From an uncultured Mollicutes bacterium (GTDB lineage: Bacteria > Bacillota_I > Bacilli_A > ML615J-28 > CAG-313), in NCBI GenBank assembly GCA_900538885.1, contig UQAI01000002.1:19211-83210 (forward strand): a stretch of 64,000 bases of DNA, in the 5' to 3' direction. Each line of letters starts with the position of its first letter. Position 1 is the first letter of the stretch. The translations under genes were made by a program, and so were the position numbers. Below, in pieces: positions 9,786 through 50,417 of the stretch. Below the pieces are notes generated by a model. That model was given only the letters and a program-made list of their open reading frames with translations, had not been told where the DNA came from and searched no databases.

Positions 9786-10415
9786 TTGCTGGAAGATAAT
9801 AAATTAATTATATATAAAAATAATGAAGGTAATATTATAGTAGATGCCATTTATAAAGATGAAACATTATGGTTATCGCAAAAAGGAATGTCTAAGGTAT
9901 TTGAAGTAGGTGTTCCATCAATATCGAAACATTTAAAAAATATATTTGAAGAAAATGAATTAGACAAATAATCAGTTGTTTCCAAAATGGAAATAACTGC
10001 TAAAGATGGTAAAGAATATAATACTGAAGTTTATAGTTTAGATGCCATAATCGCTGTTGGATATAGAATTAATTCGAAAAAAGATCATATGGGATTAACA
10101 ACTTGGAAAAATTCTCCCGATGGTTTAATATATAAATATGATGTAATTGTTGCAAAGAATTATTTAAACGAAGAAGAAATGAATAATTTAAAAGATTTAA
10201 CAAATATATTTTTAGTATTTGCTGAGGATGAAGCAAAACAAAGACATATTATGACAATGAAGGAAGCTGGCTATATTGTTGCACTTGCACATGATGCAGT
10301 TGAAAAAGCTGAAAAAGAATATGAAAAATTTAGAGTTATACAAGATCAAAAATACATTTCTTCAATGGATGAATTCTATAATAAATATTTAAATGAAAAT
10401 AACGATAGTGAATAA
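9786..10415 (+). pseudogene. RhuM-family (virulence protein RhuM) gene interrupted by an in-frame TAA stop at 9969-9971.
   Basis: ORFs 9786-9971 and 9987-10415 are in the same frame. Together they reconstitute a RhuM-like sequence (LIIYKNNEGNIIVDAIYKDETLWLSQKGMSKVF...HLKNIFEENELDK*SVVSKMEITAKDGKEYNTEVYSLDAIIAVGYRINSKK). Confidence 0.7.
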
Positions 10416-33214: not shown

Positions 33215-33247
33215 CACTTCATATTTCGGTATGAAGTGCCCTTTTTA
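33215..33247 (+). terminator. Terminator after pfkA.
   Basis: Hairpin CACTTCATA-tttcgg-TATGAAGTG followed by CCCTTTTT. Confidence 0.55.
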
Positions 33248-33338
33248 CTTCTTTTCTTGAAATAAAATATCTGATATGTTACAATTATGGTAAATGATGC
33301 TTTATAATAGCATATAATAATGAGAAAGGAGAACTTGA

Positions 33339-34211
33339 ATGAAAAAAATATTTTTATTATTAATGATGATCGTGTTAGCATTTGCCTTGCCAGGTTGTAT
33401 TAAAACAACAACAAATTATGATGAAGATTTTGAAAATGTTAGTAGGATATTAGAACTTACTTATATGAAAAGGGATATGATTACGTATGATTTTGAGGAT
33501 GAAGTTAATAGAATACAAGATGGTACTCATACCTTTTATACAACTAGATTAATTGATGATAAAAGCTATTATTATTGTGGATATTTTGATCCTGAAATAA
33601 CAGAAACACCAGGCTGGTTATCTTATGAATCAAGTAAAAAAGGAACATGGTTAAGGTATGATAAACAAGAAGACATACCAACAACGTATGGTGGTAAAAA
33701 AATATTTTTTAAATACAAAGTCTACATTATAAAAGTAGAAAAGGACATAATAAATAATAAAACATATAATAGAAAAATTAAATATTATCAGGATATGTTT
33801 GATGGACTTTTAGGACCTGGAAATTTTAGAAAAGGTAATAATTTATTATTGTTCTACCGTAAAAATTTATCTTTAGCACACTTTAATATTCATGGAGTTC
33901 AAAATGTGTTTTTTACAAATTTTAATTATCTTTGGACTCATCAGTTAGAAATAAATGAAGATCAAAGTAAAGATATTGTTTTTGATAATTATCAAAAAAC
34001 TTATAGCACAATAACAGGTGAACTAGAAAAAAGTACATATGTTTTTCCAGATGAAGTAAGACAATACTTCAAAATATTAGAACCATATGCTAGAGAAGAT
34101 CCAACCCTAGATGAAAATCCATATAGTTCAAAATATACATATGTAGTATATACAAAAGTTAGAATTAACCTTGATATTATAACTGCACTAGTGAAAGGAG
34201 AACTTGAATAA
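33339..34211 (+). CDS. Lipoprotein of unknown function.
   Basis: Signal peptide with lipobox LPGC (MKKIFLLLMMIVLAFALPGC). An A7 tract immediately follows the ATG. Confidence 0.7.
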   Translation: MKKIFLLLMMIVLAFALPGCIKTTTNYDEDFENVSRILELTYMKRDMITYDFEDEVNRIQDGTHTFYTTRLIDDKSYYYCGYFDPEITETPGWLSYESSKKGTWLRYDKQEDIPTTYGGKKIFFKYKVYIIKVEKDIINNKTYNRKIKYYQDMFDGLLGPGNFRKGNNLLLFYRKNLSLAHFNIHGVQNVFFTNFNYLWTHQLEINEDQSKDIVFDNYQKTYSTITGELEKSTYVFPDEVRQYFKILEPYAREDPTLDENPYSSKYTYVVYTKVRINLDIITALVKGELE

Positions 34212-36888
34212 AAAAACAATATTTGGTTTAATGGTGTTTGGAATAGTTATTTTCTTGTTTACTATTACAAGTACTAGAATTAATGCACATAGAAGGTTAC
34301 TATTAGTTGATTATGATGAATGTGAAAGTGATGATAAATTATGGTATTATTTAAATGAAGAAGATTTAAAAGATACAAATGGAATTCATAAATATTACCA
34401 TTTACCACAAGATGTCACAACAATTAAATATTATTTTTCAGAAGTAGGTGAAAAAGGTAGAGACATAACCTGGAATTCTGAAGTTAGTGCTACAATGGCT
34501 GAAGAAGTGAAAACTGCTTATGTTAACAGTATGAAAAAATGGAATGATGTGTATTATTATACTTATGATGAAGATGGCAATATGACAAAAAATCGTATAA
34601 TTAATATTGTCGAAGGAACTGAAGAAGACAATAATCTAATTATTTATCCAGAATATGCTCATGAAAGTAATTTAGCTTCAACATACCATTTGGATTCTTC
34701 AATTAAAATACCAACGGGCAGTATAACTGAGCATTATCATTATGATAAATGGTACATGAAAGTGTCGCCAGGAGCATTTAATAATCTACATAGTAAAGAA
34801 GAACTAGCAATTTCATATGAACGTACAGGTGCACATGAAATTGGTCATGTATTAGGCTTAAATGATATCGATAACTGTTGTTCTAAAATACCAAAAGATA
34901 AAGGGCATCACACAGATGCACTGATGGGGTATGGAAAAATAATTGATAGAAAATGTGATATTACATATAAAGATATTGCTGGAGTTAGTGTGACAAGGGG
35001 ATTCCATGATGAAATTGATCATGTATGGATGAAAAGAATAGAAGAAGATGGAACAAAATCTTTAATTTGTGCATTATGTAATGGAGTTAAAAGAAATGTA
35101 AGTTTGGACGCAGATGGTTCATATCGTGGCAGTTACGTAAGAGAATATAAAAGTTGTGATCATTATGGAGGAACAAACGCAGAAATGCTAGTAGTAGCAG
35201 AAGCTAAAAATAAACTATTTGTTAAATGCTTATATTGTCGAAGAATTGAAGAAATAGTTGTTGATGACACATATTCAATGGGAAGTTATACGCCTACAAT
35301 AAATCGTGAAATATCTTTATCAAATAGTCAAATTAAATATTACGAACTAAATGTAAATTATGCTAAAAATTATGAATTTTTAGTTCAAGGGACATCAAAA
35401 GTTAATTTTGAAATATTATCAGAAAATTATAATATAGTTAAAACAACTGATATAGATAATAATGATAACATTATGCATACCATTGTGCAACTACCAATAG
35501 GAAAATACTATCTTAAAGTTATAAATGATAGTGATGAACTAAACACAGTAAATTTCAAAATTCAATCAAGAACCACAATATATTTAAGTCAAAATTGCGA
35601 TAATGATATATTACTGAATAATTTTAATGGCATTATTGATTACTATTTTGTTAATGATGACAAACCTGGTTTTTATAGGTTTACGATAAGCGGTGAAATG
35701 AAAGATGGTACAACAGTTACGTATCCATTAAATTGTATTAGAGTCTATGATAATGAAAATAAAATAACACCAATGAAAAAAATTGATAATGAATTAGACT
35801 ATAAAAATGTTGCAACCAACGAGTATGGTGATAATAGTATGATAGTGCTTTTACCAAGAACTGGATATTATTATCTAAGTATTAATTTTTATCAAGAAGG
35901 ATTAAATAAATTGATACTTAGAATTGAAAATACTGAGGAAAGTTCAAACTTAAATTTGTTTAATTTGTCTGAAACAGGAAGTGATACAGCTGTTGTTTTC
36001 AATGAGGAAACAAGAGGTGATAAATTTAAATCATTAATTCTTGAACAAAAGGGTCAATTTGTTATTTCCACAAATTACTTAGGAAGTTTACAAAATAAAG
36101 TTTCAATTATTGTAATTAAAGTTAATTATAATAGTGCTCGCAACTTATATACTTTTAGTACACAAATGCTTAGTTTGTTAGATGAAGAAAATCCATATAC
36201 CGTGACAATTCTTACATTAGATGCTGGAGAATATTATATAGGATATCTCAATAACTATGATTCAGGCAGCGTTATAATTGAGTTTGAAAGACTAATTACA
36301 GTTTCTGGTAGTAAGTATTTGATAACTGATCCTAGTGCTGATACACTTTATGGTAGCGAGGTAAGGTATAATAATGGAGCGTTTCAGGGGATAACTGTGA
36401 CAATTGGATTTACTAGATTTATTTATTTTGATAGTACATTTATAGAAGTTCCGTCTTTGTCACGACTTGATTATGATTGGTATTCAAGTGATGAATCAAT
36501 AGCTACAATATCACCATATGGAACTTTATTTGGTAAAAATGCTGGAACTGTTAAAATAATGGCAGTACACAAAAGTAACCCAACTATTGTTTTTGTTAAA
36601 GAATTTATAGTGAAAAAGGATAATAGGATTGAAGATTTAACAATTGATATTGTTGATACAGTTAATTATGCTGAGAGTGGACAATTATATCAAATTAGAT
36701 TGACTGATGAAAATTCGCCATATCCATTAAATTCATTATATGACTGGAGAATTCTTCCGCCTAATAATTACGAAAAAGTAAGTTCAATTGGTACTTTTCA
36801 TATAAATAATACAGGATTAATAGTAGTAGAAGGAAGATACAAACTCAATTCTAAGGTTGTAATTAGATTAACAATTACAGCTAAATAA
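34204..36888 (+). CDS. Large secreted or anchored protein with a metzincin-like zinc metallopeptidase domain (M10-like) and a C-terminal Big_2 Ig-like domain.
   Basis: HEIGHVLGLND (HExxHxxGxxD) plus a Met-turn-like DALMGYG. C-terminal Big_2-like segment (DYDWYSSDESIATISPYGTLFGKNAGTVKI). N-terminal signal or anchor. The start is uncertain: TTG 34204 overlaps the upstream stop, and the ancestral ATG is mutated to ATA. Confidence 0.65.
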   Translation: MNKKTIFGLMVFGIVIFLFTITSTRINAHRRLLLVDYDECESDDKLWYYLNEEDLKDTNGIHKYYHLPQDVTTIKYYFSEVGEKGRDITWNSEVSATMAEEVKTAYVNSMKKWNDVYYYTYDEDGNMTKNRIINIVEGTEEDNNLIIYPEYAHESNLASTYHLDSSIKIPTGSITEHYHYDKWYMKVSPGAFNNLHSKEELAISYERTGAHEIGHVLGLNDIDNCCSKIPKDKGHHTDALMGYGKIIDRKCDITYKDIAGVSVTRGFHDEIDHVWMKRIEEDGTKSLICALCNGVKRNVSLDADGSYRGSYVREYKSCDHYGGTNAEMLVVAEAKNKLFVKCLYCRRIEEIVVDDTYSMGSYTPTINREISLSNSQIKYYELNVNYAKNYEFLVQGTSKVNFEILSENYNIVKTTDIDNNDNIMHTIVQLPIGKYYLKVINDSDELNTVNFKIQSRTTIYLSQNCDNDILLNNFNGIIDYYFVNDDKPGFYRFTISGEMKDGTTVTYPLNCIRVYDNENKITPMKKIDNELDYKNVATNEYGDNSMIVLLPRTGYYYLSINFYQEGLNKLILRIENTEESSNLNLFNLSETGSDTAVVFNEETRGDKFKSLILEQKGQFVISTNYLGSLQNKVSIIVIKVNYNSARNLYTFSTQMLSLLDEENPYTVTILTLDAGEYYIGYLNNYDSGSVIIEFERLITVSGSKYLITDPSADTLYGSEVRYNNGAFQGITVTIGFTRFIYFDSTFIEVPSLSRLDYDWYSSDESIATISPYGTLFGKNAGTVKIMAVHKSNPTIVFVKEFIVKKDNRIEDLTIDIVDTVNYAESGQLYQIRLTDENSPYPLNSLYDWRILPPNNYEKVSSIGTFHINNTGLIVVEGRYKLNSKVVIRLTITAK

Positions 36889-36991
36889 TGATGATTTTGA
36901 ATAAAAAATAATAAAAAGGTACGTTTGTACCTTTTTTCGTGTTTTTTCTATAAAACTATTTTATATAATATATGAAATAGAGGTGAAAAAT

Positions 36992-38957
36992 ATGAATAAA
37001 AAAATTATTGACAATTGTAGTGTTAATCTTTCTTTCCTTATTATATAGAAAAAATGTATATGCATCTAGTACAACTAAAGTACATTTAATATTTAATAAA
37101 ATTTCATATGATGCTGGAGAAGAAATAAAACTGACAATTAATTTAGAAAACTTTAGTAAACTAAATGAAACTAAGGTTATCATTAAATGTAATGATAATG
37201 CTTTTGTTCCAATTATGAAAAATGATAGATATGGACAAATTACTAATAATTCAATATATGAATCACCAATTATTAATGAATATGTTTTGGGTGGATATTT
37301 GAGATTTCAACTTCATAAAGATAATTTATCTGAAGGATACTATTCAGGATATAAGAATAATGTAGGGGAGTTTTATTTTGAAACAAGAAAGAAAATAACA
37401 AATATTTATGATTATTTTAGAAATGGTAATTTTGAATCTTTAACCACAGGCATTAATGTTTCATTATATGATATTTATAATCAAGAGATTTCAACGGAAT
37501 TTAAATGGAGTGAAAAAATTAAAGTTGATTGGAATGTTGATAAATACCAACTAGAAGTTTATGATGAAATTCCTCTTTTTGTTAATGATATTAATATTAC
37601 AAATCGTAATGAAAATGAATATGATTTATTTTTTCAAGATAAAATTAATAATAAAAATCTAGGGAGTCAAGTAGTGACAATTGCAATTTATGACAAAGTA
37701 AATGCTGATTATATTTTACTATCCAAAGTGGTAGAAGTGGTTGATACAACTTCGCCTGTGATTACAGGTAGTAATAATATAAGTGTTGAAAGTAATAAAT
37801 TACGTGATTTTAAAATTACTGAGTATTTTGTGGCTAGCGATAATTATGATAAAACTCCTGAGGTTGTGATTACTTATTATGATGTTGATAATAAATTAAT
37901 TAATAATCAAAATCTTTTTTTAGAATATTTATTAACTCATGTCCAAGCTAAAGTTGTCATAAAAAGTTTAGATAGTAGTGGTAATGCTAGTGATGAATTT
38001 GAAATAATAATTGAAATAAAAGATGTAGAAGCACCAACAGTTGATTATCCCAAAGAAATTAACATAAAAGATGTAGAAATTGCAGATTTTGACTTTATGA
38101 ATTATGTAACAGTAACCGATGACTATGATTCTAATCCTAGATTTATAATTACATATTTGTGTGAAAATATAGAAATAGAAGACCAAATAGATGCACTATT
38201 ACGAGGAAAAAAAGTAATTGTAAGATATTACGTAGAGGATAAAAGCAGTAATAAAACGCAAAATTACGAGACGAAAATTGAGGTTTTAGATACTACACCA
38301 CCAATAATTAATAATGTTGAAAATATAGAAATAACGGATCAAGAAGCCATTAATTTTGATTTTTCCAAGTTAGTTAGTATTAGTGATAATATTGATAAAA
38401 ACCCTAAAATTAATTTTACATATTATCTTGAAAGTCAGGAAGTATCACGTGATGAATGGAAAAAAGCAATAGTTAGGGGACATAAAGGCGTAATCAAATA
38501 TTATGGAATTGATGCAAGTAATAATAAAACAAGCGCGTTCGATACGGAAATAATCGTTTGTGATATTACACCGCCAGTTATTAAAATTCACAATATTAAA
38601 GAGGGAAATAAGTATCTAAAAATAGAAAAACTAGACTATGAGGTGTTAGATAACTTTGATGGAAATATTGATATTAGTGTAACTCTTAATGGGGTCGAAT
38701 ACCATAATGAAGGAATTACTAAACCTGGTGAATATGTATTTAAAGTAACAGCAGTTGATTCAAGTGGAAATGAATCAATTAAAGAAGTAAAATTTGAAAT
38801 TATTGAAAACAATGTCATAGGTTGTGGGGGAGATATTGAATGCTATTTGGATAATTATTTTGTGGTAGTGGTTATTGCGGGGATCTTAATGGCAATTATT
38901 TTAACAATTTTTATTGTAAGACTTTGTCTTTGGCAAAAGAAAAAGCAAGTAAAATAA
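36992..38957 (+). CDS. Cell-surface protein with four tandem Ig-like (DUF5011-like) repeats and a C-terminal TM anchor. The 5' end is frameshifted in a poly-A(7) tract.
   Basis: ATG 36992 with RBS GAGGTG gives MNKKII and then a stop. The long frame (track start TTG 37008) has no RBS. Removing one A from A7 (36998-37004) restores MNKKLLTIVVLIFLSLL... Repeats of D.T.P.I...D.YD..P...SGN. C-terminal VVVVIAGILMAIILTIFIV. Confidence 0.6.
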
Positions 38958-50303: not shown

Positions 50304-50417
50304 TTTTAAAAAAGTCGTATTAGTATAGTATATAGTATAAAAGTCTCTGCCGTAGACAGTAGGTGCTACGTTGTAGCTTAATTTCCTACCGAGGAAAAAT
50401 TTCAGGAGGTGAAAACA
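50304..50417 (+). promoter_or_regulatory. rplJ leader region: internal promoter plus a structured element, putatively the L10(L12)4 autoregulatory leader.
   Basis: TAGTATAGTATATAGTATAAAA AT-rich -10-like region, then GTCTCTGCCGTAGACAGTAGGTGCTACGTTGTAGC stem-loops ahead of RBS AGGAGGTG. Confidence 0.4.

Follow-up and report, generated by a model that had tools for sequence, protein, structure and literature searches.

Probable decay of accessory surface-protein genes with A7 runs near their starts in an uncultured gut Bacilli lineage

Genes at the locus

We analysed a 64,000-nt stretch (hereafter, the window) of contig UQAI01000002.1 from an uncultured Mollicutes bacterium, in which three consecutive genes for putative surface or secreted proteins are encoded on the forward strand. 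Gene 1 (33339..34211, + strand) codes for a 290-aa putative lipoprotein. Gene 2 (34204..36888, + strand) codes for a predicted secreted protease, followed by beta-rich and Big_2 domains, of 894 aa (from TTG 34204) or 885 aa (from ATG 34231). Gene 3, whose body (37008..38957, + strand) is an open reading frame (ORF) of 649 aa, codes for a protein with Ig-like (Big_3_3) repeats and a C-terminal membrane anchor. An A7 run is present at the 5' end of each of these surface or secreted genes (33342-33348, 34210-34216 and 36998-37004, respectively), and a first-pass annotation had taken the three runs for slippage-driven phase-variation tracts. The runs and the M(N)KK starts of the three genes were found in the sequence as described. 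However, after comparison with related loci, we consider it probable that the accessory surface genes are decaying through many independent lesions in separate strains, one mildly slippage-prone run being involved, and that the locus is not a programmed switch. The alleles compared were those of assembled contigs from related gut assemblies and metagenomes, each giving one state per assembly.

Gene 1 opens with ATG AAA AAA ATA (MKKIFLLL...LPGC), a lipoprotein-type signal (…ALPGC) with a lipobox ending in Cys (MKKIFLLLMMIVLAFALPGC; judged by eye), and no family was matched in Pfam. Its exact product was found by exact-product look-up on at least eight contigs. The A7 run of gene 1 was seven long in all 15 same-species loci, and the proposed phase variation of this tract was thus not borne out. 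The ratio of nonsynonymous to synonymous substitution rates (dN/dS) was 0.6-0.7 for gene 1.

The deletion in gene 3

At the original start of gene 3 (36992..37048, + strand) the ribosome-binding site GAGGTG is followed after 6 nt by an ATG whose frame, as the first-pass annotation had stated, is not that of the 649-aa body; this ATG now opens an 18-codon ORF (MNKKIIDNCSVNLSFLII) that ends with TAG at 37046-37048. The look-up of the exact gene 1 product led to L001, a human-gut metagenome contig that matches the window without a mismatch over 12,873 nt, apart from one 8-nt gap. Just past the A7 run L001 has 8 extra bases; it reads ATGAATAAAAAAATAATCAAATTATTGACA and encodes MNKKIIKLLTIVV…, the beginning of an intact 657-aa protein of which the first eight codons are missing from the gene 3 body of the window. 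The intact sequence is ATGAATAAAAAAA-TAATCAAA-TTATTG with flanking AAAT microhomology, and in the window the 8 bp (TAATCAAA) between the AAAT direct repeats are deleted (junction, 37004..37005, + strand). The deletion is private to the window allele, being absent from the 14 other same-species loci. The A7 run was seven long in all 15 same-species loci as well as in L003, L004 and L005, which belong to three other species. Because 8 bp were lost between two AAAT repeats while A7 was unchanged, the lesion looks like a microhomology deletion and not like A6→A7 slippage. The earlier remark that removal of one A restores the frame is arithmetically right, but the slippage that it implied did not occur, and phase variation of the tract, which has the same length in intact alleles, is not supported.

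The start of gene 3 is otherwise well kept. ATGAATAAAAAAATAAT was conserved in four lineages whose gene 3 proteins were 52-100% identical, and the gene 3 homologues (34 clusters) were 648-680 aa long save one partial of 399 aa, with an intact signal peptide at each N-terminus examined. Sequence comparison with PDB gave no significant match for gene 3. As judged from these comparisons, the window gene 3 appears to be a null allele that arose through the private 8-bp microhomology deletion. A different lesion, TAT to TAG at codon 83, was found in gene 3 of L028 and L029, two other loci of the same species. Note that gene 3 codes for a fast-evolving surface protein that keeps its place in the order pfk, gene 3, metS across lineages down to about 30% identity.

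In principle the frameshift in the window could be an artefact introduced when a metagenome-assembled genome was assembled or its consensus called, in which case the organism itself would have the intact 657-aa gene. Within the 90% cluster, the intact allele otherwise equal to that of the window was present on 14 contigs, against one contig (86,424 nt) for the truncated product (P0047; 645 aa, called from GTG 37020), and L001 is identical to the window base for base elsewhere; both points speak for an artefact. However, the loss of 8 bp between AAAT repeats is what replication slippage typically produces and is not typical of short-read or homopolymer errors, and the A7 run itself is unchanged, so that we regard the artefact as fairly unlikely. 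As a separate observation, the Logan contig L002, which like L001 derives from run ERR1912969, ends at window position 36959, 33 nt upstream of the gene 3 ATG and near the indel; the break might come from a variant bubble in the sample or just from low-complexity sequence. Pattern scans of JGI metagenomes for the junction of genes 1 and 2 and for the start of gene 3 gave no match.

If the deletion is real, some full-length protein might still be made if the RNA polymerase slipped or the ribosome shifted frame on A AAA AAA, since one A fewer in the mRNA would give a plausible signal peptide (MNKKLLTIVV...), and transcriptional slippage on poly(A) is known in AT-rich reduced genomes. We hold such a rescue to be highly improbable: the mechanism is documented for runs of about nine or more as against A7 here, the same A7 is present in intact in-frame alleles of four species and hence was not selected for rescue, and the frameshifted allele is a singleton.

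A-runs in the window

The GC content of the window is 31%, and its + strand, which carries 49 of the 51 putative genes, is A-rich (38% A) and has seven times as many runs of A6 or longer as of T6 or longer, a strong strand and purine bias. On this strand we counted 70 runs of at least A7 in 64 kb, and the Lys codons of the window were AAA and AAG in the ratio 598:137; the tracts of genes 1 to 3 are thus not unusually long for this genome. Runs of at least A7 lay within about 15 nt of the start at four of the 51 putative gene starts (three when TTG 37008 is taken as the gene 3 start, to which the gene 3 ATG 36992 was added), and three of these four belong to genes 1 to 3, which code for secreted proteins with M(N)KK beginnings. 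An M(N)KK start would be spelt AAA AAA plus a codon beginning with A, giving A7. Because signal peptides open in this way in an AT-rich (31% GC) genome, we read the A7 runs as a by-product of codon usage.

Alleles at the start of gene 2

The in-frame TTG of gene 2 at 34204 (MNKKTIFGLMVFG...) overlaps the gene 1 stop (TAA, 34209-34211), in agreement with the first-pass annotation. At the place homologous to the gene 1 start there is no ATG in gene 2, which reads ATA at 34208. Other strains have ATG at this place, and the claim of an altered start codon thus stands, but it was incomplete: besides the G-to-A change, the window allele is one base shorter than the ATG-A7 allele, with A6 and not A7 after the G/A position, and even the ATA lies in another frame than the gene body.

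Read after …CTTGAAT, five alleles were observed among 16 same-species loci. Allele a1 (G+A7; L022 and L023) has the ATG in frame (MKKT), as does a2 (G+A6+G; L019), which begins with MKKA and encodes an intact protein of 893 aa. In a3 (G+A6; L020 and L021) the ATG is out of frame and the TTG in frame (MNEKT). Allele a4 (A+A6), that of the window and eight other loci, has lost the ATG and has the TTG in frame (MNKKT), and a5 (A+A7; L030 and L031) has lost the ATG and has the TTG out of frame. The A-run (34210..34216, + strand) is accordingly A6 in a2 and a3, A7 in a1 and a4, and A8 in a5; it was the only one of five checked A-runs to vary between strains, the four other A7 runs in the locus (33342, 33696, 35776 and 36998) being invariant. 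Comparison across isolates, which had been proposed as a check, hence gave a constant tract length at genes 1 and 3 and a variable one at gene 2.

The changes at this site were recurrent. Since {ATG, ATA} and {long, short} occur in all four combinations within 8 nt, recurrent mutation is required. The flanking single-nucleotide polymorphisms give two downstream haplotypes, one with a1, a4 and a5 and the other with a2 and a3, and throughout gene 2 L030 (a5) hardly differs from L032 to L035, which carry a4. From these backgrounds it follows that the run changed between A7 and A8 at least once with nothing else altered and that another -1 event arose independently, and tract length (6, 7 or 8) thus differs between strains recurrently on two haplotype backgrounds.

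As to the effect on translation, the gene 1 stop of a1 to a3 is TGA and overlaps the gene 2 ATG (ATGA), the usual layout for translational coupling. The step from a1 to a3 shifts the ATG out of frame, the -1 alleles keep an in-frame TTG, and a4 and a5 have ATA. In the window allele the ribosome-binding site is 7 nt from the ATA and, after GGAG, only 3 nt from TTG 34204. Because the signal peptides of gene 2 homologues are about 27 aa long with a Lys-rich beginning, we take the long N-terminus of gene 2 as native; for the same reason ATG 34231, the choice of the gene caller (885 aa), is a less likely native start, although it is a possible fallback. Note that in the -1 alleles the former ATG frame is a mini-ORF of seven codons (34208-34233; MKKQYLV in a3) whose TAA overlaps ATG 34231 (TAATG), which might offer a second termination-reinitiation route into gene 2.

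We infer the following history. The original state was likely a gene 1 TGA overlapping a gene 2 ATG (ATGA) followed by A7, and strains would then have been hit by the G-to-A change (ATG to ATA), by an A-to-G change interrupting the run, and by one-base changes in length, which would make the gene 2 start a small mutational hot spot. In the window allele, from which the ATG is gone, only the poorly spaced TTG 34204 or ATG 34231 could start gene 2, and translation would probably depend on ribosomes that end at the gene 1 TAA and reinitiate.

A run that varies in this manner may be a true contingency tract, with slippage moving the body between a strong ATG frame and a weak upstream TTG frame and setting the protease up, down or off in subpopulations. 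The lengths 6, 7 and 8 among the 16 loci, the single A by which a4 and a5 differ on near-identical backgrounds, the second -1 event on another background, and the in-frame TTG with an intact 894-codon ORF in both -1 alleles all suit this explanation, and the 5' A7/A6 tract of Listeria inlA, with its independent origins (PMC2831843), is a precedent. However, the window allele and a5 have no ATG and the strong start cannot be restored by slippage, the alleles are fixed per assembly and tied to irreversible lesions, A7 is very common in the genome while the four other A7 runs of the locus never vary, and A6/A7 changes in inlA were measured at no more than about 1e-7 to 1e-8, far under the rates of classic phase variation. 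We therefore think a contingency tract unlikely here. Its fully elaborated form, a working tract serving two starts in different frames (the ATG optimally spaced, the TTG four bases upstream) and giving strong, weak (coupled) or no translation instead of a plain on and off, seems to us very unlikely, and we know of no phase variation in this uncultured gut Bacilli lineage. What was right in the earlier claim for gene 2 is that its tract is 6, 7 or 8 long between strains through recurrent 1-nt events, but these are fixed strain differences accompanied by irreversible lesions.

The gene 2 protein and its lesions in other strains

The N-terminal domain of gene 2 contains the motifs HEIGHVLGLND and ALMGY. 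The zinc-motif residues H211, E212, G214, H215, G218 and D221 and the Met-turn residue M241 were invariant in 42 homologues, and the family as a whole (73 clusters) has an invariant HExGHxxGxxD, HH pair and Met. The AlphaFold2 model (predicted local distance difference test score (pLDDT), 86.6) has the catalytic fold, and a Foldseek search of PDB with this model returned the matrix metalloproteases MMP-1, -2, -11 and -13 and snapalysin (E values, 5e-5 to 1e-3; target TM-scores, 0.5-0.63). Against Pfam Peptidase_M10 the sequence scored 20.8 bits, below the gathering cut-off of 24, no member of the family alignment passed this cut-off, and a sequence search of PDB gave no significant match. Gene 2 is thus, by its predicted structure, a secreted protease of the metzincin (matrix-metalloprotease/snapalysin) fold. 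It resembles the matrixins (MMP, M10) and snapalysin (M7) in HExGHxxGxxD, the downstream invariant Met and the modelled fold, with Asp in place of the third His as in snapalysin. It differs from them in a sequence similarity below the significance level of Pfam and PDB searches, an extra Cys-rich segment, beta-rich and Big_2 domains that take up about 550 aa, and an upstream lipoprotein partner gene. As further observations on this family (34204-35283), which is without Pfam annotation, the mature N-terminus AH..L.V.YD.C is conserved, and invariant CxxC pairs (C289/C292 and C342/C345) suggest an additional zinc-binding module.

In other strains gene 2 had further lesions away from its start: GG had become G at 34472 and CAA had become TAA at 35386, T4 was shortened to T3 near 35404 and A5 to A4 near 36532, one C was missing near 36655, and a deletion had removed 2.6 kb. 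Its dN/dS was 0.4-0.5.

These observations lead back to the choice between decay and switching. Gene 2 was not called phase-variable because its alleles are fixed per assembly, the ATG of the window is destroyed and many other independent lesions occur in the gene; with its strong start codon destroyed, the window gene 2 cannot be switched back on by slippage. Several points weigh against decay. Of the five A7 runs only that of gene 2 varies, with at least two independent length changes, and such behaviour would be expected of a contingency tract prone to slippage. Nine of the 16 loci carry a4, more than any other allele; it is found on two backgrounds, and its ORF is intact throughout in the eight loci that span gene 2; from this it may be that a4 is functional and selected rather than decaying, and that the TTG or coupled initiation works. 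Gain of the ATG by conversion from the gene 1 copy would fit the alleles as well as loss of the ATG does, and the remnant in L028 and L029 (see below) fits both. In addition, the tract lengths compared were those of assembled contigs. Even so, we consider decay by independent strain lesions the probable explanation.

Side by side with these lesions, signs of exchange were noticed. The haplotype of the window and L001 has about 12 close differences from all other strains in a 28-nt patch of gene 1 (33494-33521), with about 40 sites gene-wide, and gene 2 is a mosaic with blocks common to different strains. The patch and the mosaic blocks point to putative recombination between strains.

The accessory cassette and its repeated 5' module

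A genome scan gave 16 loci in uncultured gut genomes labelled Bacilli, Mollicutes or Acholeplasmatales. The order pfk, gene 3, metS without genes 1 and 2 was observed in L003 (pfk, 99.7% amino acid identity) and in L006 to L011, and L004 has pfk followed by gene 3, also without genes 1 and 2, on a contig that ends before metS. Because these sister-species loci run from pfk to gene 3 with nothing between, genes 1 and 2 are, on the evidence of gene order, an accessory two-gene cassette of about 3.65 kb, which codes for a lipoprotein and a secreted protease of predicted matrix-metalloprotease fold. Its left edge is the pfk terminator hairpin (33215..33238, + strand), kept in the cassette-free L003, and its right edge a terminator hairpin (36913..36936, + strand) that precedes gene 3 in cassette-free genomes too; both hairpins came from a terminator scan. 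The cassette would have its own promoter at a promoter-like site (33257..33285, + strand; TTGAAA, 17 nt, TACAAT, with an upstream TG), the best score of the region (10 of 12 positions), which is kept in the remnant of L028 and L029. Between the window and L003, pfk is 99.7% identical in amino acids, the adjoining gene 3 only 85%, and metS 92%.

Genes 1 and 2 share a 5' module. The string GAAAGGAGAACTTGAAT[G/A]AAAAAA occurs exactly twice in the window, at 33324 and 34193; dinucleotide shuffles gave an expectation of 0.01 matches even at three mismatches, and none of 100 shuffles had two or more. Module copy 1 (33324..33348, + strand), made up of the ribosome-binding site GAAAGGAG, a 7-nt spacer, ATG and A7, was unchanged in all 15 same-species loci. 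Module copy 2 (34193..34216, + strand) overlaps gene 1 at its last codons and stop codon and gene 2 at its start, and in allele a4 reads ATA in place of ATG. The first-pass annotation had assigned one paralogous 5' module to all three genes, which applies to genes 1 and 2 but not to gene 3, whose ribosome-binding site is another and which has only the MNKK/A7 start in common with them. In L004, around 9790-9830, the pfk terminator stem AAAGGAGAAACTTGA equals AAAGGAGAACTTGA of the module save one extra A, which may be coincidence.

L028 and L029 are of the same species, their gene 3 being about 99% identical. After pfk they have the cassette promoter and a single copy of the module, which leads directly into the signal-peptide codons of gene 2 (…GAAAGAAGAACTTGAATGAAAAAAACAATATTTTG…); they lack gene 1, and an internal deletion has removed most of gene 2. 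Because this single copy joins the gene 2 start, the 24-25-nt repeat, which comprises the ribosome-binding site, ATG and A-run, lies at either end of an indel of 869 bp, the size of gene 1, and the repeat around gene 1 would most likely be the substrate or the footprint of recombination between the two copies. At another genomic site, L024 has a distant gene 2 homologue (36% identity) with a weakly similar lipoprotein gene before it (22% identity to gene 1, E 1e-7; lipobox ...LICAVGC) and no shared 5' module. Since this distant pair has the same arrangement, the lipoprotein gene and gene 2 form an old two-gene unit. Because the pair is old, loss of gene 1 by recombination between the module copies is the favoured history; it is also possible that the repeat formed when gene 1 was inserted there. 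The bracketing of gene 1 by the repeat, together with the single copy and missing gene 1 of L028 and L029, resembles known deletions and duplications between short direct repeats, although insertion of gene 1 with module duplication fits too and the L024 pair is without such a repeat.

A genetic code with TGA as Trp would alter the end of gene 1 in the alleles with a TGA stop; it was ruled out, as the glgP, pfk, metS, rpoB and rpoC ORFs were unbroken under table 11. Elsewhere in the window, Rfam with gathering thresholds gave an FMN riboswitch at 508-621 (102 bits) and a ribosomal protein L10 leader at 50332-50414 (50.6 bits).

Comparison with known systems and meaning of the finding

The closest counterpart of the gene 2 start is the 5' poly(A) tract of Listeria monocytogenes inlA, for which A7 (in frame), A6 (frameshift) and interrupted A2GA4 alleles were described (Orsi, Bowen & Wiedmann 2010, PMC2831843); the frameshift had at least two independent origins there, and A6/A7 rates were about 1e-7 to 1e-8 (PMC2831843). 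As in inlA, a Firmicute gene for a surface or secreted protein has A7 in its first codons, in-frame A7 (a1, L022 and L023), frameshifted A6 (a3, L020 and L021) and interrupted (a2, A6G in L019) alleles coexist, and the frameshift arose independently at least twice. Unlike inlA, the -1 alleles of gene 2 have alternative starts (the upstream in-frame TTG and the downstream ATG), the ATG is mutated to ATA in most strains, the tract lies inside a 24-nt repeat common to the upstream gene, and the organism is uncultured. We put forward the gene 2 start as a candidate, though a modest one, for a hypermutable 5' tract of the inlA kind.

With the classic contingency loci (of Neisseria, Haemophilus, Campylobacter and Helicobacter, and of the Mycoplasma surface lipoproteins) the locus has in common a 5' homopolymer whose length changes shift the frame. 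Classic contingency tracts exceed the background of their genomes in length and, within populations, change reversibly at a high rate. Here, unlike in those loci, A7 is itself the background of the genome, two runs out of three show no variation, and the gene 3 lesion lies outside the run. The locus is thus a new instance of known phenomena, namely 5' poly(A) frameshift polymorphism, microhomology deletion and direct-repeat indels.

The comparison also carries a caution: AT-rich Firmicutes normally spell the MKK signal peptide as A7 after the start codon, and an adjoining frameshift need not be slippage. For the organism itself, the finding is that a cassette of a lipoprotein and a metalloprotease-fold protein, and a conserved Ig-repeat surface protein, have been repeatedly inactivated in gut populations of one uncultured species. 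This repeated inactivation could reflect relaxed selection, or pressure of the host or of phages on surface proteins.

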